64,000 nucleotides of DNA from Alphaproteobacteria bacterium (GCA_965232515.1 CBDDPY010000002.1:5664001-5728000), one strand, 5' to 3'. Numbered from the stretch's first letter, positions 1 to 18,044 are shown. Translations and numbers: made by a program. Notes: generated from the letters alone by a model not told the origin.

Positions 1-554
1 TTTCCATCAAGACATCTGTTATGAATCGCTTTTCTTTCTTTTCATTAGTTTCCCTCCTTATCCGTATTAAATCTTGGGTTTTAGAACTAGAAAACAATGC
101 ATTATGCAAATCCGATGCATGAGTATTTCGCAATCTTGCATAGAAAAAAGCCAAATCTATCTCGCCCATTTCAGCGAAAGCCACGGATATTTTTCGAAAT
201 TTTCTCCCTTCAATTTTGTAAATTCTTGGAGAATACATCATTTCTGCAGATATTTTGTTTTTGTATCGGCTCAGATCAAGATTAGATGATTTTAGCAGAT
301 TGTAGCTTGACGAAAGCAATTCGATTTTTTTTTGCAAACCAATCCTTCTCAACTAAGACATCATTTTCGTTCATAAAAAAGGGACCATAGTTTGTTTTCA
401 TAACGGTATCGAAGTAAGCGGCTACGGCACACATCCGATCTGGAGCTTTGAGGCACTGAAATGTGTAAGATTCTGACCCAGCATGAGGAACAAGAAACGT
501 GTTCAATAGGAAAAAAATTGGAAGAAAAAGATAGTGCTTTATTTTTGTTGTCAT
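1..554 (-). pseudogene. Frameshifted gene for a putative secreted protein that runs off the window edge
   Basis: RBS AAAAGGAGA precedes ATG 554, followed by a signal-peptide-like N-terminus. The frame stops at 282. Removing one base from the T9 tract at 325-333 gives a frame that stays open to position 1. Confidence 0.5.
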
Positions 555-1118
555 GATGTCTCCTTTTGACCTAAGCGGGTCAATCCGATACGGGATCTCG
601 GCGATGAAGTGTCTGGGAATGACGACTTTTGTTGGATAACGAGATCCTTAAAGGGTATTTCGTTGGATAAATTGTTGCTCGGTTCTGCAGGCGTCGCAAC
701 CAACTTCTAAACCCAAGATTGCCGAATCATGCAGAACTCGCATTTTGTAGAATAGATTGATTGTCCAAGATGGCAGTTGTCATTATCGGACTAATCCCGA
801 TTCAGCCGACAGATATTAGGGCTGTTTCCTTGCAGCTTGCGACAGGCCTTACACCGCAGCTTTGTTAGGCTCGATTACCCGCGTATAACCCCGCCAGCGG
901 CGACCAAAGTTATCGGGATGTAATACCGTTCGGTTTCAGCGTTTAACACACACGGCCTCAAAGCGATCGCACTAGCCGAGGTCTTCCAGCCAGACCGCAT
1001 AACGGCTGTCGATGGAGATGTTCTTTATATGTTGCATTCAGGCCGACGATAAGAAAACCGGTACGAGAGGCCAGTGGGTCTTACGCGGACCGGCCCTTTC
1101 CGGGGAAGCTTTGGGGCC

Positions 1119-1430
1119 ATGTGGAACCTCTACAGCCTGACGACCAATCAGGAAGCCATCAGGCGGTTTTTTGAAACGCAACGCGAAGAGGACGGTAACC
1201 TACCGCTTTTCCCGGCTGTCTTTCCGGGAAACGATGCGCCGGCTGTCCGGCTTGCAGAGGATCAGGCCGGCGAGCCGGCGATGATGAGTTGGGAGTTTGT
1301 GCTGCTCCAGCAGGGCAAAACGCCGAAGAGCGTGACCACAAGCTCACGACAAAAAGATTGCAGCCAGCCCATTCTGAAGATTATCCGTCGCCAGCTGCCG
1401 CCGCCTATTTTTTTGATCCGGCGTGCGTAA
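1119..1430 (+). pseudogene. Truncated SOS response-associated peptidase (SRAP/YedK family) remnant
   Basis: MWNLYSLTTNQEAIRRFF...GNLPLFPAVFP...APAVR resembles alphaproteobacterial SRAP N-termini (MCNLYS...). The catalytic Cys2 is Trp here, and similarity ends after about 75 aa. Confidence 0.65.
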
Positions 1431-1514
1431 TCAAAAATCGGCAATAACGTCTAGAATTACCCAAAACTTTTAGTCAATATCAATTGTTCCCTTCAACAAC
1501 GAGGCAGAGTTCTG

Positions 1515-2195
1515 ATGTCCATGTCCGGCGATCATGAGGACTTGCTTATGGAAGAGGCGCGTCTCCGTCACTTGGAATTCGAGGAATTTTTGTCAGACTT
1601 CAGATATTTTAGAACCAACTATGCAGAATTTTTGAAGCCTTTGGAAGAATTACAGAAACAATACTATAAGTCACAACACAATCAATCTGAAAGATACAAT
1701 CTAAAATCTGCAATGCGGCTAAGTCGCCCGATTAATAGAAAAAGCAGCTCTGTAGAATCAGATCTTCTCCGACGCGCAGGAAATGCTTTAAGGAAAAAGA
1801 TGAATGAACGAAGACCATACAATGACGGTGCCTATTTGGAGAATGGCCCTAATGCCATTCAAATGGAAAAGTACATGGAGGAATTTTCTAGTGAATACTG
1901 GAAGGAATTTGCCCTAAAATTGGGCATTGGCGGTAACAAATATGGTGTGATAATTGGCTTGGGAATCTATGTTTTTCTTCATAGTGAAACGGGTAAAGAA
2001 TTTATGGGAAATACATATGGAAAACTTGGATATAAAATGGGTTGGGTAATTGATAATAGATCCGTTATTTATACTAAAATCAGATATGAATACTCAGAAT
2101 CTATTCAGGAAATCTATGGTACTGCCGATTTTATTTTAAGAAATGCTGATTTTGTTTTCTTGCCATACGGCCCGAGCATCTACAGTTCTTACTGA
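1515..2195 (+). CDS. Hypothetical protein (AT-rich)
   Basis: 226-aa ORF in AT-rich DNA with GAGG upstream; no recognisable motif. Confidence 0.65.
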   Translation: MSMSGDHEDLLMEEARLRHLEFEEFLSDFRYFRTNYAEFLKPLEELQKQYYKSQHNQSERYNLKSAMRLSRPINRKSSSVESDLLRRAGNALRKKMNERRPYNDGAYLENGPNAIQMEKYMEEFSSEYWKEFALKLGIGGNKYGVIIGLGIYVFLHSETGKEFMGNTYGKLGYKMGWVIDNRSVIYTKIRYEYSESIQEIYGTADFILRNADFVFLPYGPSIYSSY

Positions 2196-2228
2196 AAATT
2201 CTAAATCAAGTAAATTGGGGGAGTTCTG

Positions 2229-3824
2229 ATGCCAAAAGACTCAAAAACGAAAATTGATGAAACAAATCGAGATTGGCGATTATTGATCAATGAATTCACC
2301 AAATCTTACCAGATTCCGAAAGAAATTGATGATATAATAAAAGGAGAATTCTCGAATAAATTACTTGAACGGCTTGATGTCGACTTCGATTCGTTACCAA
2401 ATGCGGATTACGAGAAATATTCTCCACTTCATTTCGAGCCGTTGCTTGAAGAAGCGATAGAATTATTGGATGGGTGCGCTGCGATTAGAAGTTCTTGGAA
2501 CGAAAATGCAATACAATTAGCCGATTTTATGACGGAGATATTGGAATTCATAAGTAAGGATGTTGTTCAGTCGAAAGAAAGCGATGCTGGATTTTATCGA
2601 CTGAAAGTAGATGAAATTAGATACAAATTTGATTCTGAAAGTGAATTTATTGCTCGGTCTGAAGAAGCATTAACAACTTTGACTGCAAATTTGGACAACA
2701 ATTGGAGTCGCGAAGCGATAGCGGAACAGAAATTAGTGGCAAGCTTGAATGCAGAGGTTTCGTCTAAGGAATTGCATGAAGCGGGCAGTCATAGAAATTA
2801 TGTACAACACGAAACGGAACTTCTTGGTAAAAAAACCAAGCCACAGCATGTCCGGCGATATCAGGAAATCATGTCCGAGCACAGATTAAAGGTCGAACAT
2901 GCTTCGCTAAAGTCGAGAATTCGCTCTTTGGAGGGTGCCATTAGTTCTGCTGCAAAAAGGCGTGATGGCTATGAACAACAGTTATTATATGCTGAAAACG
3001 AGATGAATTTTTTGAGAAGAAGGTACGAGATTGACAAGCGATTGATACAGTTGAAGATGAAAATGCTACTTCAAAAGAACGGTATCGTGAATTACCCAGC
3101 AAGGAAAGCGAGAATGAAGGAGATTTTTGAAAATGATTTTTTGAAATCAATTCAGAAGCTTTTATCTGTTGCAGTCGGAATGAAAGAGATGATGGGATAC
3201 CAAAACGGTTTTCCCAAAAGCGGAAAAGGTAGTTTTTTTGATGAGTGCGAAAAATGGGCAGATGATGCACTGGAGTATTTGAGAATACAATCAAGAGCGG
3301 ATCAGTTATTAGTGTTGCCTATTTCATTGCGCTCATACGAGCAGGATAAATTTAATGCGGGTCGACGGAAAGGCATTTGGGAATTTACGGTGTTTGATGA
3401 AGAAGAACGCGGTACCAACGCCTATCAAAATTCATTGGCCAAATTTCTGAAAAACTTCTGGTGCGTTCGGCTAAGGGGCATGAGTGCGTATGTAAATCTT
3501 TCAAATGGTGGAACCGGCGCCACAGATGCTTGGCAGCTATTGGTTAGGCTACCTGCCAAAGGCTACGTTCGCAGAAAAGATGGGACTCTAGTCAATCTCA
3601 CTGGGCAAGATTGGTTGCCGCCAGTATCTATCGGCAGAGCGATGGGTAGTTATCGTGATTTCGTACCCGACAAGACAGGTGTAAAAGTTTTGCACAATGC
3701 AAGCCCGTTTGGAAAGTGGCGAGTAGAGTTAGCTGATCGATCAACGCACAACAGAACATTGGACAAGGTCGAAGATCTTCAACTAGACCTCCATCTGATT
3801 GTGCAGGCTACATCCCAACCATGA
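2229..3824 (+). CDS. Coiled-coil protein with a C-terminal domain resembling the Tc toxin TcA TcB-binding domain
   Basis: 531-aa ORF with RBS GGGGAG and a long helical middle region. C-terminal pattern: PISLRSY..G.WEF / VRLRGMSAYV / SPFGKWRVEL / VEDLQLDLHL. Confidence 0.5.
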   Translation: MPKDSKTKIDETNRDWRLLINEFTKSYQIPKEIDDIIKGEFSNKLLERLDVDFDSLPNADYEKYSPLHFEPLLEEAIELLDGCAAIRSSWNENAIQLADFMTEILEFISKDVVQSKESDAGFYRLKVDEIRYKFDSESEFIARSEEALTTLTANLDNNWSREAIAEQKLVASLNAEVSSKELHEAGSHRNYVQHETELLGKKTKPQHVRRYQEIMSEHRLKVEHASLKSRIRSLEGAISSAAKRRDGYEQQLLYAENEMNFLRRRYEIDKRLIQLKMKMLLQKNGIVNYPARKARMKEIFENDFLKSIQKLLSVAVGMKEMMGYQNGFPKSGKGSFFDECEKWADDALEYLRIQSRADQLLVLPISLRSYEQDKFNAGRRKGIWEFTVFDEEERGTNAYQNSLAKFLKNFWCVRLRGMSAYVNLSNGGTGATDAWQLLVRLPAKGYVRRKDGTLVNLTGQDWLPPVSIGRAMGSYRDFVPDKTGVKVLHNASPFGKWRVELADRSTHNRTLDKVEDLQLDLHLIVQATSQP

Positions 3825-4376
3825 CAACCACAAACCGATACCCTAGAGATCAGCTTGCAGCATAGAATTCCACTCATCAAACGTCTCAAACAAACGGTTC
3901 GAACTTTCTCCTCCAAGGCGCACCGTCGGGCACTCCATGAATAGGTTCGAGTCCTTGCCTGTCGTCGTGTTTACGCTATGCGCAAGATGTCCCCTGTGTA
4001 TTACGGGGGCATCTTGGCAAGGGAAACCCCTTCGGTTTCCCGTTGCATCCCTTCCCGCCGTGGCGCTTTCAGGCATCGAGCCTTCTTGCGCCAATTCAGC
4101 GTATCGCCGCTTACCACTCGCAGGACGTTTGGCCGCCTGCACCCACCATTCAGGGAGACTTCGCTCTCCCCGAAACCCCATCGACCAGGCGTATGCCGCC
4201 ATGGACCAGCACCAAGGTTTCGCCCTTGGAGGCGACCAACCCTGTGCGGATTGGATGCGCGTCAGCGTTTAGGCTCTGCCCTTCAAGGAGCACCTCTGGA
4301 TACAATTGGTTGTGCATGAAAGCAATTTTCTCTCTTTTTGTTAGAGAAATGTGTATCCACCGGTTACACTACCTGC

Positions 4377-4598
4377 TTGGCAGACAAGGACGTAGGGCTT
4401 CGCATCCGGGTACAGCGAGACCTCCGCGAACGCTTCGCGGAGATTTGCCGTGACCAGGACAAACCCGTCGCGCAGGTAATCCGCGAGTTTATGCGCGAAT
4501 ATGTTGCACGCCACGCCTTAGGACTTGTCGAGCAGCTAGAAGCCCGGCCAAGCACGGAGCATGCCCGGAAAGAGACGGCGAGCAGAGAGCGGGGTTAA
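4377..4598 (+). CDS. Ribbon-helix-helix (CopG-like) DNA-binding protein
   Basis: KDVGLRIRVQRDLRERFAEICRDQDKPVAQVIREFMREYV has a beta-alpha-alpha pattern; TTG start assumed. Confidence 0.7.
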   Translation: MADKDVGLRIRVQRDLRERFAEICRDQDKPVAQVIREFMREYVARHALGLVEQLEARPSTEHARKETASRERG

Positions 4599-4772
4599 CA
4601 ACAACACTAGAGGAGAGTTTTGCCTCAGACCGCTGCGAGAGTTCGGAACGCCAGCTCGTTCGTGTGGTCCATCGCGCAAATCCCTCGCAGCGGGCTTGCA
4701 ATGGTCGAGCAAGGCAAGGGATCAACACCGTTTCACATACTCGCGCAGCTTTTTCCCGGAGGTGCCTGAGCT

Positions 4773-6275
4773 ATGCCTACACCAATCACAGCCTCAATGC
4801 TCTACGATTTGGTCTCATGCCCGCATCGGGTGACCATGGACATCTTTGCCGATCCGGCTGAACGCGACGCGCCAAACGCGTTTGTCGAACTTCTGTGGGA
4901 GAAGGGTTCGATCTACGAGAAGGAGGTCATTGAAGGGCTGGAAGTGCCCCTCACCGATCTCTCCATGTACGCCGGTGACGAAAAAGAGCGGCTAACTCTT
5001 GAGGCCATGGTGCGAGGTGACCCGCTGATTTACGGTGCCCGTATCCAGGCCGAAGGTTTGCTTGGAGATCCCGATCTACTTCGCAATGAGGGTTACGGCT
5101 ATATCGCCGGTGACATCAAATCTGGATCGGGCGAAGAGGGTCCTGAGGACCATTCAAAGCCCAAGAAGCACTATGCTGTGCAACTCGGCCTCTACACAGA
5201 CATTCTGGAACGTAAGGGCCTTTCTGCCGGTAAGCGCGCGTTTATCTGGGATATCAATGGTGACGAGGTCACCTACGATTTCACGGAGCTTCACGGCAAG
5301 AGGAACCCGCGCACGCTCTGGCAAGATTATCAGGACTGCCTTTCTGAAGCAGATGAAATTGTCGAACAGTCCACGGAGACGCTTGCCGCCTACAGTGGCA
5401 TCTGCAAGCTCTGCCACTGGTACAGCGCTTGCGTCTCGCGCTTGAGCGAAGCAAACGATCTTACCTTGATCCCTGAGCTAGGCCGGTCGAAACGCGACGT
5501 ATTGCGGGACCGCGTCAAAACTATCCGAGAGCTCGCGGACGCCGATCCCTGTGATTTTCTGGATGGCAAGAAAACGGTCTTTCCCGGAATTGGTCCTGCC
5601 ACTCTGGAGAAGCTTCATGCCCGCGCGAAGCTGATTACTTCCGGGAAAAAGGCAAAGCCCTACCTACGTGAGCCCGTAACGCTGCCAGTTGCTGACCTGG
5701 AGCTATACTTCGATATCGAAGTCGATCCTATGCGGGACATCTGTTACCTGCACGGCTTTGTTGAGCGGCAAGACGGTAACAACGATTCAGAGCGATTTGT
5801 TGCCTTTTTTGCGGAGGAGCCATCCGAAGAGGCCGAAAAGAAGGCTTTCCAGGATGCTTGGCGCTACATGCAGGAGAGCCAGCCTTGCGTGATTTATTAC
5901 TACTCAAAATATGAGCGAACGATCTATCGAAAGCTTCGTGAGAAATATCCCGATGTTTGTACTGAAGACCAGCTAGAGGCTCTGTTTGATCCCAATCGAG
6001 CCATAGACCTGTATTTTGACGTGGTGCTCAAGGCTACGGAGTGGCCTACACGAGATTTCTCTATCAAGACGCTCGCGAAATATCTTGGTTTTGACTGGCG
6101 CGACACACACCCGTCCGGTGCGGCTTCCATTGAATGGTTTCATAGATGGGTAGAAACGGGCGATACGACGATCCGCCAACGTATTCTTGACTACAACGAA
6201 GATGATTGCCGTGCGACGCGCGTTCTGCGCGACGCCATCGACGGCCTTGCCCGAATGCCGGAGGAGGCCGCATGA
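4773..6275 (+). CDS. TM0106-family RecB/Cas4-like nuclease with a C-terminal RNase H-like domain
   Basis: CPHR; PD-(D/E)xK-type GDPDLL...DIKS...YAVQL; CKLCHWYSAC; C-terminal YFDIE...YNEDD. Confidence 0.85.
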   Translation: MPTPITASMLYDLVSCPHRVTMDIFADPAERDAPNAFVELLWEKGSIYEKEVIEGLEVPLTDLSMYAGDEKERLTLEAMVRGDPLIYGARIQAEGLLGDPDLLRNEGYGYIAGDIKSGSGEEGPEDHSKPKKHYAVQLGLYTDILERKGLSAGKRAFIWDINGDEVTYDFTELHGKRNPRTLWQDYQDCLSEADEIVEQSTETLAAYSGICKLCHWYSACVSRLSEANDLTLIPELGRSKRDVLRDRVKTIRELADADPCDFLDGKKTVFPGIGPATLEKLHARAKLITSGKKAKPYLREPVTLPVADLELYFDIEVDPMRDICYLHGFVERQDGNNDSERFVAFFAEEPSEEAEKKAFQDAWRYMQESQPCVIYYYSKYERTIYRKLREKYPDVCTEDQLEALFDPNRAIDLYFDVVLKATEWPTRDFSIKTLAKYLGFDWRDTHPSGAASIEWFHRWVETGDTTIRQRILDYNEDDCRATRVLRDAIDGLARMPEEAA

Positions 6276-7504
6276 CCAACTCGCAGCCCAAGCAGGATGC
6301 ACAAAAGACGCTCTCAGACCTGAGGGATCATCTCGCCCGCCACGACAAACCAATAGCATTCTTTTTCGGTGCGGGAACCTCCTGCGCGGTTAGGGTCCCC
6401 CACCCGGTTGATAAAGACAAGACGCTGCCGTTGATACCTGCCGTCGCTGGACTGACAAAGATTTGCCAAGAAGAAGCGAGTGGGTTAGGCGAGAAATACA
6501 AAAATGCCTGGACCTCGATTGAGACCAATTGCAAGGAAATCGGGCAAGACCCGAACGTCGAAAACATACTCTCTCGCCTGCGCATGATGCTGAGTGCCGT
6601 CGGTAACACCGATACCTTGTCCGGCCTGAAGAGAGATGAGATTGAAACACTTGAGGAGTCTGTTCGGAAGACAATAGCGAAGGTTGTCACGCCTGACCTG
6701 GACGTTGTTCCGAATGACCATCCCCACCGGAAGTTTGCGCGATGGCTTGCAAAAACATCACGCCAGAACCCGGTCGAGATATTTACCGTGAACTATGATG
6801 TGCTCATTGAGCACGCTCTTGAGGCTGAACGCATTCCAGTTTTTGACGGCTTCGTCGGCAGCTATCAACCCTTTTTTCACTCCGATAGCCTTCGCAGGCT
6901 TGAATCTGCGCCTGGTGTTAACTGGACTCGGCTCTGGAAGATGCATGGCTCTGTCACTTGGCGTCGTATTGAGAAAGACAACCGCTTTCGTGTTGTGAGG
7001 GGCGAACCCGACACGGGCGGAGAAATGATTTATCCATCGTTTGAGAAATACGATGAGTCTCGCCAGCAGCCATATTCCGCCTTTACAGACCGCTTGAGCC
7101 GCTTCCTCGAGCAAGATGATGCACTTCTGATCGTCGCCGGCTTTAGCTTTGGCGACGAACACATAAACAACCTTGTTTTTGGAGCCCTGGAAAACAGGCT
7201 AAGGACACACGTCTACGCCCTTCAGTTTGATGAGCTGCCGGACGATAACGACCTGATCAAGCGTGCGGTCCAGCGGCCAAACATGATTGTGATGGGACCT
7301 AAGACCGGAATTATTGGCGGTCGTCGCGGAGCATGGGCACCTGTCGAAAGCCCGGAATCCATGGGAGTCGCGTTCGAGTTAATAGACTTTGATGCCGCGG
7401 AAGAAAGCGAGGGAGGAGGAGGTGAAGACGCCAAGTCGGGCTTAATGAAGATCGGTGGCTTTGGCTCATTCTGCGATTTTCTTGAATCTATGACAGCGAG
7501 CTAG
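6272..7504 (+). CDS. SIR2-like NADase (SIR2_2) defence effector
   Basis: Motifs FFFGAGTS, TVNYD, KMHGS, GFSFGDEHIN. ATG 6272 follows GAGGAGG and overlaps the upstream stop (ATGA). Confidence 0.9.
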   Translation: MTNSQPKQDAQKTLSDLRDHLARHDKPIAFFFGAGTSCAVRVPHPVDKDKTLPLIPAVAGLTKICQEEASGLGEKYKNAWTSIETNCKEIGQDPNVENILSRLRMMLSAVGNTDTLSGLKRDEIETLEESVRKTIAKVVTPDLDVVPNDHPHRKFARWLAKTSRQNPVEIFTVNYDVLIEHALEAERIPVFDGFVGSYQPFFHSDSLRRLESAPGVNWTRLWKMHGSVTWRRIEKDNRFRVVRGEPDTGGEMIYPSFEKYDESRQQPYSAFTDRLSRFLEQDDALLIVAGFSFGDEHINNLVFGALENRLRTHVYALQFDELPDDNDLIKRAVQRPNMIVMGPKTGIIGGRRGAWAPVESPESMGVAFELIDFDAAEESEGGGGEDAKSGLMKIGGFGSFCDFLESMTAS

Positions 7505-7510
7505 ACCACT

Positions 7511-9382
7511 ATGCCGCTCGCTGACCCTACATATATTGGCCAAGTCGCTTCCGTCACGGGGGCCGTTGTCCGCGTACGTCTTCGTGAGGACATGCCGTCA
7601 ACGCTGGTCATGATCGGCGGTGAATCCTATCGTGTGGGACAGATTGGCGGATTCTTCCGCGTCCCTCTTGGTTACGCCAACCTCTACGCAGTTTGCACTC
7701 AAATCGGCGCAGACGCCGCCCCTCCCGGCAGCGCTGAGGAAACTTTCGGAGCAGCACTGGAAACCGAGACCCAGGCGCGCCTCTCGGGCTTTCGCTGGAT
7801 GACGATTGTCTTATTTGGCGAAGGACTTGGCACCGAATTTGAGCGCGGCGTCGGTCAATATCCGACCGTTGGGGACGAAGTGCACCTTGTCACCAATGAT
7901 GACCTCAAGATCATCTATGGCTGGGCGAAAGGAAAAAAAGGCACGATCTCTGTCGGGCAGATAGCTGCCACATCAGGCATATCAGCCGATGTCAGTGTAG
8001 CCGGACTTGTCAGCCGCCACAGCGCGATCGTTGGTTCTACCGGTGCAGGCAAATCGAACCTCGTCACCGTTCTCATGGAAACGGTTTCTGATGGAAGCCT
8101 GCCCAACGCCCGTGCGATCGTGATTGATCCTCACGGGGAGTACGCGACTGCACTAGGCGATAGAGCAAGAGTGTTTCGTATCAGGCCCGACGAAAAAGCA
8201 GGAGAAAGACCATTATGGGTCCCATTTTGGGCGCTGCCCTTTTCGGAACTTCAGCTGCTTACACTTGGCGGACTCCAACCCAACCACGAAGCTGCGATAC
8301 GCGATCAAGTCCTCGACATGAAGACGGCGGCTGCCGAGCGCCTAGCTATTCCTCCACCGCCTGAGACACTTACAGCGGACTCGCCCGTTCCGTTCAGCAT
8401 CAACAAGCTCTGGTACGACCTTGACTGCTTCGAACGTGTTACGTTTCGAGCAACTGGCAATCAGCAGACAGAGGATCAGGCCTACCCACCAGACGAAGTT
8501 GGGGACGCCAGTCAACTCAGACCTGACCGTTATCCCGCTGCTAGTCCCTATAACGAGGCTCCTTACAAGAACCAGCGAAAGCGGAACCTTGAACGCCACC
8601 TAGACTTGATGCGGAGCAGATTGAAGGACAGCCGGTTTTCCTTCCTTTTTTCACCCGGCGGTGGTTATGAGCCCAATCTGAATGGTGAAATACAAAACGA
8701 TCTGGATGCATTGGTTCGAGAATGGGTTGGCCACGAAAAGCCGATAACAATTTTTGATGTTTCGGGACTTCCGTCCGAAGTGCTCCCGACAATTGTCGGC
8801 ACCATGCTTCGCGTGGTTTACGACACGTTGTTCTGGGCACAGGATTTGCCGATAGGCGGACGGCAGCAGCCGCTCCTTGTCGTTCTAGACGAAGCCCACC
8901 GCTTTGTTCCAGAAGGGGAGGATTCTTCCGCTCATCGCACCCTGTCCACGATTGCGAAAGAAGGCCGTAAATACGGGACAGGCCTCATGTTCGTGACGCA
9001 GCGGCCGTCCGAAATTGATAGCGCCGTGTTGAGCCAGTGCGGTTCACTTATTGCTTTGCGGATAACCAACTCATCAGATCGTAGCAAGGTCAGCGCCGCA
9101 ATACCGGATGACCTTGGCGGGCTAATTGAGCAGCTACCCTCGTTACGAACTGGGGAAGGAATCTTTCTCGGTGAAGTTATGCCTATCCCTTCGCGCGTGC
9201 GGGTGCGCAAGGCGACGGAAAAGCCTGTTGGAGATGACCCCAAACTTCCTGACGTATGGCAAGTGGAAGAACGCCCTGACGGGGGCCTCTACTCCCGTGC
9301 TCTGGCGAACTGGCGTGCGCAATCTACATCCGTGCAGATGGAGAAAAATGGAAACGAAGGGGAGGAACCTGACAATGCCTGA
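7511..9382 (+). CDS. herA: HerA/DUF87 ATPase with an N-terminal HAS barrel
   Basis: Walker A GSTGAGKS, IDPHGEY, Walker B VVLDEAHRF, KEGRKYG, TQRPSEI. Confidence 0.9.
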   Translation: MPLADPTYIGQVASVTGAVVRVRLREDMPSTLVMIGGESYRVGQIGGFFRVPLGYANLYAVCTQIGADAAPPGSAEETFGAALETETQARLSGFRWMTIVLFGEGLGTEFERGVGQYPTVGDEVHLVTNDDLKIIYGWAKGKKGTISVGQIAATSGISADVSVAGLVSRHSAIVGSTGAGKSNLVTVLMETVSDGSLPNARAIVIDPHGEYATALGDRARVFRIRPDEKAGERPLWVPFWALPFSELQLLTLGGLQPNHEAAIRDQVLDMKTAAAERLAIPPPPETLTADSPVPFSINKLWYDLDCFERVTFRATGNQQTEDQAYPPDEVGDASQLRPDRYPAASPYNEAPYKNQRKRNLERHLDLMRSRLKDSRFSFLFSPGGGYEPNLNGEIQNDLDALVREWVGHEKPITIFDVSGLPSEVLPTIVGTMLRVVYDTLFWAQDLPIGGRQQPLLVVLDEAHRFVPEGEDSSAHRTLSTIAKEGRKYGTGLMFVTQRPSEIDSAVLSQCGSLIALRITNSSDRSKVSAAIPDDLGGLIEQLPSLRTGEGIFLGEVMPIPSRVRVRKATEKPVGDDPKLPDVWQVEERPDGGLYSRALANWRAQSTSVQMEKNGNEGEEPDNA

Positions 9383-9590
9383 AATGCATTTGGTTGACTC
9401 ATCAAATATTGAAGCCATCGGTTTTGATCCTGACAATCAGGAACTACATGTGCGGTTTCTGAAGTCGGGTGAAACTTACGTTTACTACGGCGTTGAGGAC
9501 TGGGTTTTTCAGGAATTTTTGCAAGCAGATTCCAAAGGTACTTATCTCAACACCAACATTAAAGACCGCTACCAGTACGGTAAGCTGTGA
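9375..9590 (+). CDS. KTSC domain protein (71 aa)
   Basis: VDSSNIEAIGFD...LHVRF..G..Y.Y..V......A.SKG.Y.N..IK signature. RBS GGAGG; overlaps the herA stop. Confidence 0.85.
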   Translation: MPEMHLVDSSNIEAIGFDPDNQELHVRFLKSGETYVYYGVEDWVFQEFLQADSKGTYLNTNIKDRYQYGKL

Positions 9591-9653
9591 ACCAAAGTCT
9601 GTAAGCTCGTTTTCGTGCGTCCGACATGGCTGTACCCGGTTCTGCTAGCCCGC

Positions 9654-10706
9654 TTACGTCCTTGCATACCAAGTCCCTTTCCTCTTGCCATGCTGGGAAA
9701 GATGATTGGCACTCACCAGTGTTTGCAGGTGTTTCTTGACCGTGTTGCGGTTCGCGCCGGTGGCGGTGACGATCTGGCCGATCGTGATTTTTCCGTGCGC
9801 CCTCGCCAGTTCGAGGATTTCAAGCGACAGGTCCGGCAGGCTATCGACCATAATCCGCTCGCGCTCGATTTTCCGGGCCAACCGGTTTTTTTGCTCTTGC
9901 AAGGCGCGCAGGAAATACGCAACCCACGGCTCCCATTCGGGTCTATCGCTGCGGATGGTGCCTTGCGTCTGCCGTAGGGCGAGGTAGTACCCCTCCTTGG
10001 TCTGCTCGATCACGCTTTCCAGCGAGCTATAAGGCACATAGCCATAGCCGCAACGCAGCAGGAGCAGCGTTGTTAAAATGCGCGACAGCCTGCCGTTGCC
10101 GTCCTGAAACGGGTGGATTTCCAAAAAAACTACCGTAAACACAGCGATCACGAGCAGCGGGTGCAGGCGGCCTTCTGCCAGTGCGGTACGGGTCCAGTCC
10201 ACGAGCTCAGCCATAAGCCGGGGCGTATCGAACGGTGTGGCGGTTTCAAACACCACTCCAATCTCCTTTCCGACGTCATCAATAGCGGTGACATGATTGG
10301 TGGTGGTTTTGTATGCGCCGCGGTGTCGTTCGTCCTTGGCGCTGTGGATGAGCAGATCGCGGTGCAGTTGCAGGATATGGTTTTCGGTTATCTCGATTGC
10401 TTCGGCACTTGCGAAAACCGTTTCCATGACTTCCGCATACCCGGCCACTTCCTGTTCGTCGCGTGTCTCGAACGCCTTGATTTCGAGGTTAGATAAAAGC
10501 CGCTCAACTTCGCGGTCGGACAGCTTGCTTCCCTCGATCCGCGTGGAGGATCCGATACTTTCGATGGTGGCGACCCGGCGCAGCGCTGACAGCCGCTCAG
10601 GGGCCAGCGTGCCGAGGGCCTTCCATGCGCCCTTGAACTCGTCCAGCTCGGCAATGAGGGAGAGGATTTCAGGGGTGATCGTCAAGGTATCGGTGTTTAA
10701 GCTCAT
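9654..10706 (-). CDS. Fic family protein with a C-terminal HTH
   Basis: Fic motif HPFQDGNGRLSR; inhibitory-type motif SSTRIEG. Confidence 0.9.
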   Translation of the reverse strand: MSLNTDTLTITPEILSLIAELDEFKGAWKALGTLAPERLSALRRVATIESIGSSTRIEGSKLSDREVERLLSNLEIKAFETRDEQEVAGYAEVMETVFASAEAIEITENHILQLHRDLLIHSAKDERHRGAYKTTTNHVTAIDDVGKEIGVVFETATPFDTPRLMAELVDWTRTALAEGRLHPLLVIAVFTVVFLEIHPFQDGNGRLSRILTTLLLLRCGYGYVPYSSLESVIEQTKEGYYLALRQTQGTIRSDRPEWEPWVAYFLRALQEQKNRLARKIERERIMVDSLPDLSLEILELARAHGKITIGQIVTATGANRNTVKKHLQTLVSANHLSQHGKRKGTWYART

Positions 10707-10790
10707 ACCCAAAAATATACCCAAAAATATCCATAAATTCAAGATTCGGGGCCTGATACCCGAAAATACACCCATAAATATCCAAAAACT
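10705..10790. repeat. Two arrays of three 11-12-bp direct repeats (ATACCCAAAAAT-like) upstream of fic
   Basis: ATACCCAAAAAT x2 + ATCCATAAATT (10705-10739); ATACCCGAAAAT, ACACCCATAAAT, ATCCAAAAACT (10756-10790). Confidence 0.75.
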
Positions 10791-11143
10791 GTGGATGCCT
10801 CCCCCGCTAATCGCGGGGGCCGTGCTCTATTCCGCTAAGCTCGTTCCTCGCCAAGCTCCACGGAGCCATCGAAGATGTCTCCGCCCATACGGGTAACGAT
10901 CACTGGCGCAAGACAGTGGACAGCTTCGCGAGGGTGTTCTCGTTTCCGCGCTCAAAAGTAGCGCTCCCGCGGGACCACCGGGAACCCCGCTCAAGCTGAT
11001 CGCCGCTTCCCGCCACATTCTGTAGCTCCTTGCAGGCTATCTCGTTTTTGAAGAGCCGTTTCAAACCCTTCCAAAGCAACATTGGGGTAGTGAGCAAGCG
11101 CCACGGGCGGTGATTATTCGGCCCGGTTTATTGTCGGCCTGGA

Positions 11144-11182
11144 ATGAAAACGGCCTCGGGGCGGGGCGAAGGCCGTTTTCAT
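11144..11182. terminator. Hairpin downstream of the relaxase, probable terminator
   Basis: 13-bp inverted repeat ATGAAAACGGCCT / AGGCCGTTTTCAT. Confidence 0.5.
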
Positions 11183-11253
11183 CCCATTCCGAAGCAACAA
11201 ACCTCACACCATGAATGTGGTGGAAAGGTTTTCAAGTCGCTAATCAAACGCTT

Positions 11254-12555
11254 CTATTGCTCAAACTCGAACTTTGTACAGAGGCTGATTGCTCTTTCTC
11301 TTTCCTCATTCACTTTCCGCACGCTTTCATTGCTTGCGCTTGGATCAGACCCCATTGCAGCGTATTCCGAGAGCTGCGCATAGAGGTTATCCAGTTGAGA
11401 GCCGTAGTTCGCTTTGGCCGATTCAAGACGTTGTTGCAGTTTTTGTCGGTGTAGGCGTTGCCGATCTTCAAGCGCCTGTTGCTCCTGTCCGTCCCGTTGT
11501 AGACAGCGCTGTGCGGCAAAATCATTTTCTTTGGCAATCAGAGCATGTTTGCCTGTAATGCGGTGCCATAAACCTCTTAGGCCCTCTGAAAACCGAGCCG
11601 CACGTTCGGCCGCTTCCGCTTGCCAGCGCTCATCCTGTTGCGCTTTGAGAGTTTCGCGCTCCTGCCGATGACGCTGCGTCATTTCTGCTCGCTGCGATTC
11701 AAAAGCGCGCAAATCTTCTTTTGCGGCCTGTGTGACTTCCGCAACATATTTCTCAAGCTTTGGCGTCATGCGTTTGGCTGCCTTCGCCTGGACAGCTTCA
11801 ACACTTGGCAAATCTTGAGGTTCGCCAAGACGCTGCGCCAGTTCGTTGGATTTGACCCCCGACCAGCGGGAGAGCGAGTAAATGTTGCCTTCGTAATCGA
11901 CGCAGACAAATCCCCGCCTATCGCCTTGCGCCAAGAACAGCCCTGATCGCTCCAGCGCTGCCTCAAAGGATTGGCGATTGTCGCTGCAATTCCAGCTTGC
12001 CTTGACATGCTGCTTAAGATGTTTCGGCTGACGTTTGCCGCGTTTGGCCTCCTGATATTCTTCATAAGTGTAGTTCATGGGATCGGACTCCTGACCTTCA
12101 ATAAATCCGGCTGGAATTTCCCACCCGTGTTGAATGAAGAGGTCCAGCGCCAGGCCGTTCAGCTTGCGCTTGGGGTAATCCAGCTTGATAGCCTTCATGG
12201 TTTCGAGACTTATGCGTGACCACACAGCATGAGCATGGGTACGGCCTTCTTTGGTGTGCAGAACAATCGCTCGGCTTTGCCCGTTCAGCCCAAGGGTCAT
12301 TTCCGCCCGGTTAACCGCATCTATGAAATCCTGCCGAGAAACGTCGGCATCGGCGGGCGGGTTGAGACTGAGCGAGTAAAGATACTTCTTGCACTTCGTC
12401 GAGCGGCTAATTGCCTGTACCTCTAGAAATGCATCCATAAGCGTATCGGCGGCAAACCCGCGCATCTCGAGGATTTCGATATGCTCGTTTTCATCCTTCA
12501 TTAGATGAAGGGCGGACTCTGCAGCATTGCCCCTGATGTTGCCGACAAGGTTCAT
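11254..12555 (-). CDS. Relaxase/mobilization nuclease (MOBP/VirD2-like)
   Basis: LYSLSLNPP; HTKEGRTHAHAVWSRI (HUH motif); C-terminal coiled coil; lies directly after mobC. Confidence 0.85.
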   Translation of the reverse strand: MNLVGNIRGNAAESALHLMKDENEHIEILEMRGFAADTLMDAFLEVQAISRSTKCKKYLYSLSLNPPADADVSRQDFIDAVNRAEMTLGLNGQSRAIVLHTKEGRTHAHAVWSRISLETMKAIKLDYPKRKLNGLALDLFIQHGWEIPAGFIEGQESDPMNYTYEEYQEAKRGKRQPKHLKQHVKASWNCSDNRQSFEAALERSGLFLAQGDRRGFVCVDYEGNIYSLSRWSGVKSNELAQRLGEPQDLPSVEAVQAKAAKRMTPKLEKYVAEVTQAAKEDLRAFESQRAEMTQRHRQERETLKAQQDERWQAEAAERAARFSEGLRGLWHRITGKHALIAKENDFAAQRCLQRDGQEQQALEDRQRLHRQKLQQRLESAKANYGSQLDNLYAQLSEYAAMGSDPSASNESVRKVNEERERAISLCTKFEFEQ

Positions 12556-12559
12556 GACG

Positions 12560-12982
12560 CTATCGGCGCAAACCAAGCGCCCGAACAAGCATCAAACGCA
12601 TTTCGCTTACGTGCTCACAGGCTTGCATGAGTTCCCGGCATACTTCTGGCGTCACAGGCAAAGCGCCGGAGTTTGCGGCCTTGGCGAGTTGATTGAGGTT
12701 GCTTGAAAGGCGGGATTGCCCGAGCATCCCCAACGCCTTTGCGAGCGATTTCGCATCGGCCACCGGGCGGGCGTTTCTTGATCGCAATGATCCATCGTCT
12801 TCAAAAAGGAGGCTACGGACATGCACGCCGAGCGGCTTGCCTTTGGCGTCCTCTTGGAGCCGTTTACGCTGCTGGTTCGTTAGGCGAATCGAGAACGGGT
12901 AGGTCTGTTTCCTCTTTTGTGCGGGGCTGGGCGCGCACGCATGCGCCCACACCCCGGCGAGGCCGGGTGTGTCCTTCGGCAT
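12560..12982 (-). CDS. mobC: MobC relaxosome accessory protein
   Basis: PFSIRLT RHH strand and LG...SNLNQLAKAAN motif; start uncertain. Confidence 0.8.
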   Translation of the reverse strand: MPKDTPGLAGVWAHACAPSPAQKRKQTYPFSIRLTNQQRKRLQEDAKGKPLGVHVRSLLFEDDGSLRSRNARPVADAKSLAKALGMLGQSRLSSNLNQLAKAANSGALPVTPEVCRELMQACEHVSEMRLMLVRALGLRR

Positions 12983-13024
12983 TGAAGACTCCTGTTATGT
13001 TGAATGATTTCCACAACAGGATAA

Positions 13025-13060
13025 GAGGCGAGGCTTGCCCACACCCATCATATCCTGCGA
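13025..13060 (+). other. Putative oriT (MOBP-type nick region)
   Basis: ATATCCTG|C at 13050-13058 matches the IncP/T-DNA border core YATCCTG|Y, about 70 bp upstream of mobC. Confidence 0.6.
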
Positions 13061-13108
13061 CTTGCGCAGGATTTGAACCTGCGACGTGCAGGTTAAGTTG
13101 ATTGCACT

Positions 13109-13120
13109 CCCCCGCAACCA
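13109..13120 (+). other. att site: displaced 3' end of tRNA-fMet
   Basis: CCCCCGCAACCA lies at the GC transition and is directly followed by a terminator hairpin. Confidence 0.7.
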
Positions 13121-13130
13121 CCGAAAATCG

Positions 13131-13160
13131 ACGCCCCGGCGCATCCGCGCCGGGGCGTTA
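13131..13160. terminator. Rho-independent terminator
   Basis: Perfect 12-bp stem ACGCCCCGGCGC-atcc-GCGCCGGGGCGT followed by TAGTTGTT. Confidence 0.7.
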
Positions 13161-13235
13161 GTTGTTGCGGTCCTTGCCGCGGATCGGTCGTGCGCCAAAG
13201 GTAATAGGGTCGGGGGCTTGGCGTGCGGCGGTTGG

Positions 13236-14459
13236 TCAGGGCGCGTGCTTGACGACCGTTCCGCCCTGGACGATGAGCTTCAGGTTCGCTTCCGGCGCCT
13301 GCAGCACGCCGAGATCGTCGAGCGGGTTGCCGTCGACGGCCAGCAGGTCGGCGCGGGCGCCGTCGCGCACGACTCCGAACTCGCCCGCCCGGCCGAAGGC
13401 TTGCGCCGCGGTGCAGGTGGCGCTGCGCAGGATGTCGGCATTGCTGACGATCCCCGCGCGCAGCGAGAACTCGTTCAGCTGGTGGACGTGCATGTCGCCC
13501 AGCAGATCCGTCCCGTAGACCAGCGGCACCCCGGCGCGATAGGCCATTTCGAGGGCCCCGGCGCCGGCGTCCAGCACCTCGTAGACCGTGTCGACCATCG
13601 ACTTCGGCATGCCGGCGGCGACGCCTTCGCTGGCGAGCGCGTGATAGGTCGAGAGCGTGGGCACGAGGTAGCCGCCATGCGTCAGGAACGCTGCGCAGGT
13701 CGACTCCTCCAACAGGTTCCCGTGCTCGATCGTGCGCACCCCGCATTCCAGCAGCCGCTCGATCGCGCGGGCGGTATAGGCGTGCGCCATGACGTAGATA
13801 TTGGCGGCGTCCGCCTCCTCGACGACGGCGCGGATCTCCTCCAGCGAAAACTGCGTGCTGTCGATGCGGTCGGTCGGCGAGGAGACGCCGCCCGAGGCCA
13901 TGATCTTGATCTGTGTCGCGCCCTTGCGGATTTCGTCGCGCGCGGCCCGGCGGACTTCGCTGACGCCATCGCAGATGCGCCCCAGTCCGGCGCAGCAGAA
14001 GCAGCCTTCGAACGTGTCCTGGCCGGGACTGCGCATGTCGCCGTGGCCGCCGGTCTGGGACAGCGCCTTGCCGGCGAACAGGATGCGCGGGCCGCGCAAC
14101 CAGCCCTCCTCGACCGCCCGCGCCAGGCCGTGGTCGGCGCCGCCGGCGTCGCGCACGGTGGTGAAGCCGCGCATCAGCATGTCTTCCAGGATCTGTCCCG
14201 CCCGCGCGGTCACGTAGGTCGGCGACCAGGTGTTCAGCAGCGGAAAGTTCGGCGTCGCGGCGGTAACGTGCACATGCCCGTCGACCAGGCCCGGCATCAG
14301 GGTGAGGCCCTTGAGGTCGATCGTCTCGGCGGCGGCCGCCGCCGCGCCGGTATCGATGTCGACGATACGTCCGCCGTCGATATGCACCGTCCGCTCACCG
14401 ATCAACTCGCCCGCCTCGACGTCGAGCACGTTCGCGTTCAGCAGCGCCAGTTCACTCAT
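13236..14459 (-). CDS. Metal-dependent amidohydrolase (Xaa-Pro dipeptidase-like)
   Basis: MPGLVDGHVH, GFTTVRDAGG, QIKIMASGG, MAHAY, IEHG, GTD. Confidence 0.9.
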   Translation of the reverse strand: MSELALLNANVLDVEAGELIGERTVHIDGGRIVDIDTGAAAAAAETIDLKGLTLMPGLVDGHVHVTAATPNFPLLNTWSPTYVTARAGQILEDMLMRGFTTVRDAGGADHGLARAVEEGWLRGPRILFAGKALSQTGGHGDMRSPGQDTFEGCFCCAGLGRICDGVSEVRRAARDEIRKGATQIKIMASGGVSSPTDRIDSTQFSLEEIRAVVEEADAANIYVMAHAYTARAIERLLECGVRTIEHGNLLEESTCAAFLTHGGYLVPTLSTYHALASEGVAAGMPKSMVDTVYEVLDAGAGALEMAYRAGVPLVYGTDLLGDMHVHQLNEFSLRAGIVSNADILRSATCTAAQAFGRAGEFGVVRDGARADLLAVDGNPLDDLGVLQAPEANLKLIVQGGTVVKHAP

Positions 14460-14667
14460 GGCCTCTTTATGCCCCATGCTTGCGTGATGCCGGGCGATCG
14501 CGGGCGCGTCGCCATGTCTCGTCCCGCCCCGTTGTCCCCTGCGTCGTGCAGGGCGCCGCGGCGCGAACCGGCTCAGCGGTAAGGAAAGCAGCAACCGTTC
14601 GTCAGGTTAGCAAGGCCGGTTCGACCGCGTCCAGCGGCGCCGCACCGCCGTCGGCCGGCGGCAGACG

Positions 14668-15801
14668 CTATTCCCGCGTAGCGCCGGGAGGCGGCCTTCG
14701 GCCGAGCAGGCCGGCGGCGATCCCGACGGACATTTGCAGGTGGCGGCCGAGGTCCGGCTTCACCAGCATGCCGGCGGCAAGCCAGAAGAGATAGCGGATC
14801 GTACTGCCGGGGTAGAGGCGGAAGAACCAGAGGCGATTCTGCGCGCTATGCGCGGGCGCGGCGAGCAGACGCAGGGCGTGGGGGGCGTCGTCGACCCTGA
14901 TCAGGTCCCGATGCTTGTCGATCGCGTGCGCGAGGCGGCGACAGCGGTCGCGACAGGCGAAGACCAGCAACAGGATCGCCAGCATGTTGACCGAGACGGC
15001 CAGCAGGTTTTCGCGGCGGCGCGCCTCGAAAAAGGCCGGCCAGTCGATGTCGTCTTCCAGGCAGGTGACGACCGTATGGAGGTCGGCCAGGCTCTTGGCC
15101 CGGACCTTTCCGAGCTCGATGTCGGCGATCAACGACACGATCAGCAGCAGCAGGGAATCCTCGTCCGACAGTACGGCGTAACTGTCGCCGGAAATCGGAA
15201 ACCGTCGCGTCGCCGCCCAGATCCGCGTCAGATCGATGTCGTAGGCCGGGCGCGTGCGGAAACACCAATGCAGGTCGACGGCGACGTCCGCTCGCCGCAA
15301 GCCGATCGCGTGCACGAACCGGCTCGTCAGCATCGCGGGCAGGCGCGGACGACCGTCGTCGTCATAGCCCAATGCCCGCATCGCCGCCCGCAGACGCGGC
15401 AGATCCTCGGGCCGGACCAGAATGTCGAGATCGCGCAGCCGCCGCGCGCCGATATCGCCATAGAAATGCAGGGCGAAGTGGAAGCCCTTGAGCAGGATGA
15501 TATCGATGTCGTGGGTCGCCGCCGTTCGGTGCAGCTCATGCAGTGCGTCGCCCAGCATCCCGGACCGGTCCCGGTCGTTGGCGGCGAAGCCGAGCAGCGC
15601 CATGACCAGCCAGGCGGGCAGGCGGTCCGATGCCTGGCTTCGCTCAATCCGCCAACGCAGATACGCGCCGAGATCGTGGGTCGCGAGGAAGCTGAGAAAC
15701 GCTTCGGACTGGAAGTCCGGCGCCGTGAGCGCGGTCGCGACCGCGTCCCAGTCGCCGCGCGCCGCCGCCGCGATGATCGGAAAATGCGCTTGCCAGGTCA
15801 T
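14668..15801 (-). CDS. Nucleotidyltransferase (NTP_transf_5 family)
   Basis: ILLKG.....FY.....R...DLDILV and VDLHW signatures. Confidence 0.85.
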   Translation of the reverse strand: MTWQAHFPIIAAAARGDWDAVATALTAPDFQSEAFLSFLATHDLGAYLRWRIERSQASDRLPAWLVMALLGFAANDRDRSGMLGDALHELHRTAATHDIDIILLKGFHFALHFYGDIGARRLRDLDILVRPEDLPRLRAAMRALGYDDDGRPRLPAMLTSRFVHAIGLRRADVAVDLHWCFRTRPAYDIDLTRIWAATRRFPISGDSYAVLSDEDSLLLLIVSLIADIELGKVRAKSLADLHTVVTCLEDDIDWPAFFEARRRENLLAVSVNMLAILLLVFACRDRCRRLAHAIDKHRDLIRVDDAPHALRLLAAPAHSAQNRLWFFRLYPGSTIRYLFWLAAGMLVKPDLGRHLQMSVGIAAGLLGRRPPPGATRE

Positions 15802-15831
15802 GGGATCGCCGCGCGCCGCGGTTTCGGCGGG

Positions 15832-16932
15832 CTAGGTCGGGCTCGCGTTTGACGCGGCCTCGGCCAGGATGCGTTTTGCCCGGATCTCCAGGTCGTCCGG
15901 ATCGGCCGCCTCCGCCTGCCGCAGCCATGGAAGTGCGCGCCCGGGCTCGCCCTGGCGCAGCCAGCAAACGCCCATCAGACCCCAGGCCAGCGCGCCGAAC
16001 AGGCGGCGGTCGTAGCCCAGCTCGCTTCGCGCCGGCCCGTCGGGTCCGAACGCCAGCAGCCGGTCGAGGCAGGCCCGCGCCGCGGAAAACCGCCCGGCCG
16101 CCTCATGATGGCGCGCGGTCCACCATAGCACCGACGGGTCGTCGCCGTGGCGGGCGGCGGCTTCGTCCAGCAGCACCGCGGCGTCGGCGAGCGCGACGTC
16201 GGCATCTGATGTGTGCAGGTCCAGCAGATCGGCGTAGATCAGGGCATCGCCGGGCCGGGGATCGCGGCGTCGCAGCACGGCCAGGCCCTGCCGCCAGGCG
16301 CGCTCGGCCGCGGCCGCGTCGCCCAGGCCCCGCTCGGCTTCGCCGAGCGCGTGCCAGAGATAGATCCGCGCCGGATCGGCCTCGACGGCGCGGCGCAGCA
16401 GTGGGTGGTTGCGCCGGTGCTTGGCGTCCAGATTGCCCTCGTAGCCAAGGTGCTCGATGGCCATCGGCGCATCGGTGATCACCGCGTCTTCGGCGGCTGT
16501 GATCCGCTGCAGGTCCGGTACCACGGTTTCGTGGATGACGCCGCGAAACCGGATGTCCGGCCGATTGCGGAACAGGCGGTGCTCGCGATAGGGCGTCAGG
16601 CGGCTGTTGGCGCGAAAGCGGACGCGCGCGGCGACCGCCGATCCATCCCGCAGCACCGGATCGAGCCGGCCATTCAGCGAGACCCGTTCATCGGCGTCGA
16701 TGTAGAGAATCCAATCGCCCGTCGCATGGGCGAGCGCGGTGTTGCGGGCGCGCGAAAAATCATCGCGCCAGGGTTCGCGCACCAGGCGCGCGCCGTGCGC
16801 AACCGCGATGTCGGGTGTACGGTCCCGCGACCCGGTATCGACCACCACGACCTCATCGGCCACGGCGGCGATACTGTCCAGGCAGGGGCCCAGATGTTCT
16901 TCCTCATCGCGGACGATAAGGGCCGCGCTCAG
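15832..16932 (-). CDS. GT2 glycosyltransferase with C-terminal TPR repeats (SunS-like architecture); start uncertain
   Basis: The frame extends upstream of the track ORF as LSAALIVRDEEEHL...DTGSRD...DDFSRARN...YIDADE...IHE, followed by helical repeats. Confidence 0.8.
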   Translation of the reverse strand: MSAALIVRDEEEHLGPCLDSIAAVADEVVVVDTGSRDRTPDIAVAHGARLVREPWRDDFSRARNTALAHATGDWILYIDADERVSLNGRLDPVLRDGSAVAARVRFRANSRLTPYREHRLFRNRPDIRFRGVIHETVVPDLQRITAAEDAVITDAPMAIEHLGYEGNLDAKHRRNHPLLRRAVEADPARIYLWHALGEAERGLGDAAAAERAWRQGLAVLRRRDPRPGDALIYADLLDLHTSDADVALADAAVLLDEAAARHGDDPSVLWWTARHHEAAGRFSAARACLDRLLAFGPDGPARSELGYDRRLFGALAWGLMGVCWLRQGEPGRALPWLRQAEAADPDDLEIRAKRILAEAASNASPT

Positions 16933-16976
16933 CCGTCCGTTTTGGCCGGCCGCGGCGGTGTCACGGTGTTGCGGGC

Positions 16977-17144: not shown

Positions 17145-17188
17145 AGGACATGCCCCCTTTACGAGCGGTCAGACAATACAGAAGGCTA

Positions 17189-17217: not shown

Positions 17218-17218
17218 G

Positions 17219-18040: not shown

Positions 18041-18044
18041 CCCG

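Follow-up and report, generated by a model that had tools for sequence, protein, structure and literature searches.

Sir2-HerA has been studied so far as a two-gene system. In Paenibacillus sp. 453MF (cryo-EM structures 8W9L, 8WIV and 8WLD), described as having two genes in the main text of PMC11472057, Sir2 precedes HerA, the putative catalytic residues of SIR2 are N163, D165 and H212, and residues 576–696 of HerA are named the 'C-terminal arm domain'. The E. coli Sir2-HerA/Nezha system and types I–III (8SU9, 8J4U; main text of PMC13434337) share the same abortive-infection logic of a Sir2 NADase with a HerA ATPase, and in type III the NADase is gated by DNA nicks and ends. A locus of this kind with two further genes was examined in 64,000 nucleotides of DNA from Alphaproteobacteria bacterium (GCA_965232515.1, CBDDPY010000002.1:5664001-5728000), a stretch referred to as the window and numbered from its first letter. 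The locus encodes a nuclease of the TM0106 family, a Sir2-like protein, a HerA ATPase and a small KTSC-domain protein:

4773-6275, plus strand: TM0106-family nuclease, short form, 500 aa (stop TGA at 6273-6275)
6272-7504, plus strand: Sir2-like protein, predicted NADase and effector of the Sir2-HerA system (ATG at 6272, stop TAG at 7502-7504)
7511-9382, plus strand: herA, predicted ring ATPase/translocase, 623 aa (ATG at 7511, stop TGA at 9380-9382)
9375-9590, plus strand: KTSC-domain protein, 71 aa (first ATG at 9375, second in-frame ATG at 9384)

Judged by its sequence, the locus belongs with the Sir2-HerA systems typified by Paenibacillus sp. 453MF, for which protection against phage by NAD+ depletion is predicted. 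The balance of the evidence leans towards a defence operon in which the nuclease is an integrated, optional and translationally coupled add-on and not a core subunit. The nuclease stop and the Sir2 start form an ATGA junction with a 4-nt overlap, which was kept in 19 of 19 close loci passing the filters. A gap of 6 bp separates the Sir2 stop from the herA start, and the KTSC gene overlaps the herA stop by 8 nt, as was also seen in 30 of 34 loci (these sets of 19 and 34 contain a few duplicate loci). The KTSC start at 9375, its first Met, is the Met kept in relatives. Both the junctions and the four families had been read by eye in the initial annotation; the former agreed with the verified coordinates and the latter with matches to TIGR03491, Pfam and PADLOC models.

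The PADLOC comparison suggested in that annotation returned both core proteins. Sir2 matched the SIR2 model PDLC04093 (3.9e-144) as well as Pfam SIR2_2 (1.8e-18), and HerA matched PDLC04105 (3.7e-155), Pfam DUF87 (3.4e-30) and HerA_C. By sequence, the best solved relatives were the SIR2 (8w9l_A, 3.5e-63) and HerA (8wiv_A, 696 aa, 3e-144) of Paenibacillus sp. 453MF, the E. coli structures being far more distant (8j4u HerA, 3.3e-30; Sir2, 4.7e-13). Sir2 residues N174, D176 and H225, invariant in 24 of 24 homologues, aligned with the putative catalytic N163, D165 and H212 of 8w9l_A. HerA residues 6–606 aligned with residues 11–605 of 8wiv_A, ending before the C-terminal KTSC domain of that chain, and the Walker A (GSTGAGKS) and Walker B (LLVVLDEAH) motifs also aligned. 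Scores against the NCBIfam models SIR2_antiphage (NF042942; 78.7 bits, cut-off 500) and HerA_antiphage_2 (NF042944; 222.5 bits, cut-off 850) were far under the cut-offs, indicating that the pair belongs to a Paenibacillus-like branch rather than to that of E. coli, and to another subtype than those models. The sequence features of the SIR2-HerA type (PADLOC; Paenibacillus 453MF) were found, namely a Sir2 with Asn/Asp/His and, directly 3' of it, a HerA with Walker A/B motifs, while the HerA C-terminal extension including a KTSC-like domain was present as a split gene. The window's own genome (G000) has two more HerA-like genes, at C2:4537213-4537914 (3e-42) and C2:2076647-2077978 (5e-39), which matched over the C-terminal half and probably belong to other HerA-based systems.

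The window has the Sir2-then-HerA order of the Paenibacillus system, the helical 'arm' of HerA (to about residue 605) and the KTSC sequence. It differs in that the Paenibacillus HerA is one 696-aa chain whose last ~65 residues are KTSC, whereas the window has a separate 71-aa gene, and in that a TM0106 nuclease is coupled upstream of Sir2. In a literature search of main texts, few of them from subscription journals, no description of a TM0106 nuclease in a Sir2-HerA operon came up. The main text of PMC13434337 does not contain the terms KTSC, Cas4 or accessory.

The TM0106-family nuclease and its association with Sir2-HerA

The nuclease matched TIGR03491, the TM0106 family model, over residues 5–487 of 500 (241.6 bits against a cut-off of 97.45; 1.6e-71) and Pfam RNase_H_2 (PF13482) over residues 311–488 (1e-27). 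A PD-(D/E)xK domain of the Cas4/AddB kind, bearing a four-Cys cluster, makes up its N-terminal half, and an RNase H-fold domain resembling the 3'-5' exonuclease of family-B polymerases its C-terminal half. A GIGP motif, read by eye, suggests a helix-hairpin-helix-like linker between them. In an alignment of 48 homologues (55–86% identical), the four Cys that had been noted for their Cas4-like C...CxxC-x5-C spacing (C16, C211, C214 and C220) were invariant in 48 of 48. The same was true of K116, Q137 and Y141 in the RecB/Cas4-type PD-(D/E)xK site, with D114 nearly so, and of D314, E316, D318, Y380, E381, D412, Y474, D477 and D478 in the DEDD-type exonuclease site. An AlphaFold model (pLDDT 92.7) was compared with known structures using Foldseek. 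One half resembled Cas4 (7mi4_A, 2.1e-7), AdnAB nuclease domains, MGME1, Exo5 and Dna2, and the other the exonuclease domain of archaeal PolB (5mdn_A, 1.2e-4); both active sites look intact in alignment and model. A sequence search of solved structures with the nuclease gave zero matches at E up to 1, and COG2251 is listed as uncharacterised in two superfamily surveys (PMC3985635, PMC3424549).

Membership of Cas4 itself was rejected (TIGR00372, 15.9 bits against a cut-off of 65; PADLOC Cas4, only 1e-4). The fold and the Cys cluster are common to both, but the window nuclease has an extra exonuclease domain and none of the flanking ORFs scanned was recognised as a cas gene. An identity as NurA was also rejected, as the Pfam scan of the nuclease gave RNase_H_2 alone. 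A DNA motor is paired with a nuclease in HerA-NurA, AddAB/AdnAB and Dna2, and the N-terminal half of the window nuclease resembles the iron-sulfur (Fe-S) PD-(D/E)xK nucleases AdnAB, Dna2, Exo5 and Cas4; a comparable partnership with HerA may exist here. In the solved Sir2-HerA complexes the Sir2 ring sits on the N-terminal face of HerA, where NurA would dock.

Species-representative genomes were searched with the nuclease, and the best 80 of 97 relatives were kept. A Sir2-HerA-KTSC set directly adjoined the nuclease in 20 of these 80 loci, which came from Alpha-, Gamma- and Deltaproteobacteria and Acidobacteriota, and the four-gene order first noticed in the window recurs in several phyla. Fifteen of the 20 have a close set, with Sir2 60–83% identical and the order of the window (L012 is cut by a contig end). 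One locus with the layout of the window, L019, is from the environmental isolate Elioraea tepidiphila DSM 17972, and its HerA is 89% identical to that of the window. The other five of the 20 have a distant set, with Sir2, HerA and KTSC 31–46% identical. This set is ordered as in the window in L026, L027 and L028, precedes the nuclease in L040 and is convergent to it in L009. A different Sir2/HerA-like pair lay 5.5 kb from the nuclease in L031, a lone Sir2-domain gene adjoined it in L016 and L038, and about 55 of the 80 loci stood without Sir2-HerA.

A metagenome search seeded with HerA gave 28 loci, of which 18 were able to show the state of the nuclease and 10 were uninformative. A full-length nuclease lay upstream of Sir2 in nine (L118, L119, L121, L122, L127, L130, L132, L134 and L138); HerA in L121, L134 and L138 is identical to that of genome loci already counted, and L118 equals L119. 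A distant TM0106-like gene was found in two more, convergent in L143 and frameshifted in L145. On the latter, a frameshift-ridden contig, a distant nuclease-Sir2-HerA set (HerA 48% and nuclease about 33% identical) seems to occur twice, the copies being inverted. Together with the window, at least 26 further non-duplicate loci join Sir2 and nuclease with HerA and KTSC. PMC9503650 (2022) likewise couples HerA to a KTSC gene and a DNase gene but describes sirtuin and DNase as mutually exclusive, a framing which these loci contradict.

The association was repeatedly gained. In a nuclease tree of 79 rows, which leaves out fragments of <400 model positions and three duplicates, the Sir2-HerA-linked rows fell in at least five places, and L033, with a close set, was sister to L026, with a distant one. 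Nucleases 63–72% identical to that of the window stood beside Sir2-HerA-KTSC sets only 33–43% identical, in three arrangements (L009, L026, L028 and L040), which points to repeated capture by separate Sir2-HerA lineages. Within the close clade the divergence of the nuclease correlated with that of Sir2 (r 0.89) and HerA (r 0.82; 17 loci), but such co-divergence did not hold overall (r 0.63 and 0.58, respectively). Both partners are rare. Among 401 genomes of the phylum, a full-length match to the window HerA occurred in six, namely G000 and the five genomes carrying the system, and any TM0106 match in 13, including G000 and G383; with such low base rates chance adjacency of nuclease and HerA is very unlikely.

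Several observations weigh against an integral place for the nuclease. In 50 of the 79 rows of the nuclease tree there was no Sir2-HerA nearby, and the many self-sufficient defence systems among its other neighbours make tight adjacency alone weak evidence. Among the HerA-seeded loci, the nuclease was absent despite at least 800 nt of upstream sequence in six (L124, L125, L126, L129, L137 and L142) and present as a fragment only in one (L136). It was absent beside Sir2-HerA-KTSC in five of five loci from the phylum sample (HerA 36–45% identical), and the window query did not detect it at any other place in these genomes. On the HerA tree (48 rows, 38 of them informative), the nuclease must have been gained or lost at least seven times. 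Remnants of its 3' end precede intact Sir2, HerA and KTSC genes in L125 (~62 nt) and L136 (~410 nt), indicating that Sir2-HerA-KTSC persists after loss of the nuclease; from these remnants, L125 and L136 are recent deletions. Moreover, the Paenibacillus system was reportedly validated as two genes, and the literature search turned up no biochemical data on the TM0106 family or KTSC.

The overall picture is the pattern of a module repeatedly captured and repeatedly lost, which points to a selective link and, equally, shows dispensability. Of the two genes added to the known pair in the initial annotation, KTSC followed herA in 47 of 47 loci, and the nuclease is optional; in the synteny survey it was full-length in 9 of 18 informative HerA-seeded loci and adjoined the set in 20 of 80 nuclease-seeded ones. 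Closely related operons that differ only by the presence of the nuclease provide a natural with/without experiment.

Other neighbours of the nuclease and its possible role

Alternatively, the nuclease could be an independent single-gene module for defence or DNA repair, co-transcribed with defence genes but neither binding nor needing Sir2-HerA-KTSC, an explanation that we consider possible but doubtful. It is favoured by the existence and persistence of Sir2-HerA-KTSC without the nuclease, by the many nuclease rows away from Sir2-HerA, and by flanks that are extremely variable, with 767 clusters among 979 neighbouring ORFs. (The idea that the nuclease forms a constant chromosomal border to a defence hotspot was rejected, given the variation on both sides.) Neighbours of ≥200 aa lying no more than 4 kb away gave 258 candidates, of which 96, taken from 22 of the 59 loci without HerA, were compared with PADLOC; 34 of the 96, in 17 of the 22 loci, matched known or candidate defence proteins of many unrelated systems at E up to 1e-10. 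Among them were HmaA, HmaB, HmaC, ZorC, ZorD, GajA, GajB, a CBASS cyclase with NucC, type IV Cas5, Cas6, Cas7 and DinG, restriction enzymes of types I, IIG and IV, JetC and SoFic, and Pfam families among the neighbours included GmrSD, MmeI, nSTAND3-Mrr, AbiEii, BrxL, HipA and RmuC. Spacing as tight as that to Sir2 was seen with an Mrr-like gene, a DUF6765 gene, NucC and HmaA.

Four points speak against such independence. Sir2-HerA-KTSC is by far the commonest neighbour, in 20 of 80 loci as compared to at most about 5–6 for the Hma genes; distinct Sir2-HerA lineages acquired related nucleases several times; the ATGA overlap was kept in all 19 loci; and fusions to helicases recur, suggesting that the short form needs a motor partner. 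In L029 (7908-13184), an uninterrupted ORF of 1758 aa fuses the nuclease module (65% identical) to an SNF2 helicase. The long-form TM0106 proteins (the plasmid forms) fuse the nuclease to an SF1 helicase, and ten TM0106 matches of the phylum sample lie in open frames of 995–1225 aa. In a plasmid collection the matches were all distant long forms (≤27.6% identical, 53 records). The nuclease gene also lies just downstream of separate motor genes: the distance is 1 nt from an HmaA-like SNF2 gene in L035, 37 nt from ZorD in L042, and 24 nt from a gene resembling UvrD in L017, L019 and L021. Defence islands and helicase partners provide a first functional context for the TM0106/COG2251 family.

Two other neighbourhoods were observed. 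In L032 (9579-14264), type IV CRISPR-Cas genes (Cas5, Cas6, Cas7 and DinG by PADLOC) begin 81 nt downstream of a short-form nuclease. Type IV CRISPR-Cas systems are usually without adaptation genes, and L032 sets a Cas4-like nuclease beside such a system. In loci of Nitrospirales metagenome-assembled genomes (L072-L079), a conserved trio lies upstream of the nuclease in most cases, comprising two paralogous genes of ~375–390 aa and one of 160–190 aa, the small one without a Pfam family; this trio may be another partner set of the nuclease.

A mechanism can be proposed by analogy with solved relatives. By this analogy, the HerA ring ATPase of the window would assemble with a Sir2 NADase ring, and upon infection the complex would deplete NAD+ and attack DNA. 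On the preferred reading of the nuclease as an integrated but optional add-on, it might degrade DNA from ends or nicks, in both polarities, with HerA as its motor, as in HerA-NurA, AddAB and Dna2, a role suggested by the relatives fused or adjacent to helicases and by the folds of end-processing enzymes. It would thereby add direct destruction of phage DNA and/or make DNA-end intermediates that switch on HerA and Sir2. According to the main text of PMC13434337, the ATPase of the E. coli type III system is activated by DNA ends, which also set its NADase free.

A bolder and still more tentative suggestion is that the short form of TM0106 nuclease acts as a portable 'DNA-end shredder' for whichever DNA motor or DNA-breaking defence system it adjoins, the candidate hosts being Sir2-HerA, Hma, Zorya, Gabija, CBASS-NucC, restriction-modification and type IV CRISPR-Cas. 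Its combination with HerA would be a bacterial resection machine like HerA-NurA. If so, a nuclease-HerA machine would both destroy phage DNA and make the DNA-end signal that releases the Sir2 NADase, providing a two-tier defence, direct and then abortive, of a kind not described for Sir2-HerA.

KTSC as a HerA domain encoded by its own gene

The product of the last gene matched KTSC (PF13619) over residues 8–66 (7.1e-23; 80.5 bits against a gathering threshold of 25) and, among solved relatives, 4rgi_A (7.9e-10) and 7x8c_A (4.9e-7). It also aligned with residues 631–695 of the 696-aa Paenibacillus HerA (8wiv_A, 7e-8). Among HerA protein clusters at ≥84% identity, of which at least 120 were listed, 119 of the 120 listed (84–100% identical) are ~593–625 aa long and without KTSC. 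The remaining one, P0097 (694 aa), is a fused HerA-KTSC, residues 625–694 being 86% identical to the window KTSC. The alignment to 8wiv_A and the P0097 fusion together argue that KTSC is a split-off piece of HerA.

A KTSC gene was found 3' of herA in 47 of 47 related loci whose sequence extends past herA (19 of 19 nuclease-seeded, 5 of 5 from the phylum sample and 23 of 23 HerA-seeded metagenome loci); five further HerA-seeded loci stop inside herA. Pairwise divergences across 21 loci correlated at 0.99 for Sir2 and HerA, 0.95 for Sir2 and KTSC, and 0.94 for HerA and KTSC. The constant position of KTSC and this co-divergence indicate that the conserved unit is Sir2, HerA and KTSC. The 8-nt overlap with the herA stop suggests coupling by termination-reinitiation, which would supply about one KTSC per HerA. 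By these comparisons, KTSC is the C-terminal domain of HerA encoded as its own gene and not an added component, and a large environmental clade keeps this domain as a separate, always-present gene.

The initial annotation had proposed KTSC as an added sensor or inhibitor, which was not borne out given its place in the HerA of a two-gene system and in P0097. A version of this idea appears improbable, namely that KTSC acts as a regulator in its own right, sensing phage nucleic acid or inhibiting the complex, and that its freedom from HerA allows it to dissociate on infection. The split form is the rule among close HerA relatives, as that idea would have it, and KTSC is annotated in Pfam as likely nucleic-acid-binding. 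PMC9503650 also predicts a nucleic-acid-binding domain, and the literature search found such predictions and nothing beyond them. However, the Paenibacillus system and P0097 both have the domain within the HerA chain itself, indicating that separate release is not essential to the mechanism of the family, and divergence so closely tied to that of HerA (r 0.94) would suit a stable subunit. One locus favours the regulator idea: in L045 (8001-9713) a KTSC gene (PF13619, 5.7e-24) lies 30 nt downstream of the nuclease, and the following 4.3 kb are without Sir2 or HerA. This could be a remnant after deletion of Sir2-HerA, or a genuine pair.

The word KTSC is absent from the main text of PMC11472057, and the literature search, over main texts with few from subscription journals, found no statement that the tail of the Paenibacillus HerA is a KTSC domain. 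The split form points to a domain left unnamed in the structural papers searched.

The surrounding island and flanking genes

The operon lies on a low-GC island, with 37–60% GC in window positions 1-13050 as compared to 66–72% after ~13,000. Flanking features of the window were as follows:

1515-2195 and 2229-3824, plus strand: adjacent gene pair, 226 aa and 531 aa, in the lowest-GC stretch (37–40%)
4338-4598, plus strand: ribbon-helix-helix (RHH)-like ORF, with an in-frame TTG at 4377 as candidate start, 174 nt upstream of the nuclease
9654-10775, minus strand: Fic-domain gene, convergent, directly after the KTSC gene
11254-12588, minus strand: relaxase
12560-12982, minus strand: MobC

The 20 kb upstream on the same contig (L148) encode a type IV coupling protein, a second resolvase and a large serine recombinase beside a tRNA-Met gene (L148:3390-3466). 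In all probability the island is an integrative element, mobilisable or conjugative, of ~30 kb or more. Right at the GC jump, 20 nt (13066-13085, minus strand) match the T-arm region of this tRNA-Met exactly, in inverted orientation, and may be a tRNA remnant marking the island end; ARAGORN gave no tRNA at 13066-13085, and a tRNA scan of window positions 1-20000 was also negative. That the nuclease serves the island, in DNA processing or recombination during transfer, and not defence is very improbable: the island does carry a relaxase, MobC, a coupling protein and serine recombinases, and distant long-form relatives are common on plasmids (53 records), but a relaxase match was found in only 1 of 80 nuclease loci (L020) and integrases in two, none being a conserved neighbour, and the neighbours are mostly defence genes.

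The RHH gene noted ahead of the operon is present, although its CopG-like product matched Pfam RHH_9 just above the cut-off (25.6 against 23.4 bits, 1.1e-5). Conservation with the operon was not seen, tblastn giving zero matches in 108 other loci (80 nuclease-seeded and 28 HerA-seeded), and the gene is most readily taken for a local neighbour that does not belong to the conserved cassette. Sites in a promoter and terminator scan of 3800-10900 were no more frequent than in shuffles, and an Rfam scan of 1-14000 gave zero family matches. Four RNA runs with the same species label gave 0 reads on 4300-9700, and the island may be absent from those strains. For the gene pair at 1515-2195 and 2229-3824, neither Pfam nor NCBIfam gave a family and PADLOC gave just a weak match to AriA (5e-4); the two may be an undescribed defence pair. 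The Fic protein has a C-terminal winged helix and matched PADLOC SoFic (1.6e-49), and Fic genes also adjoin the nuclease or the Sir2-HerA set in L011, L020, L112 and L129.

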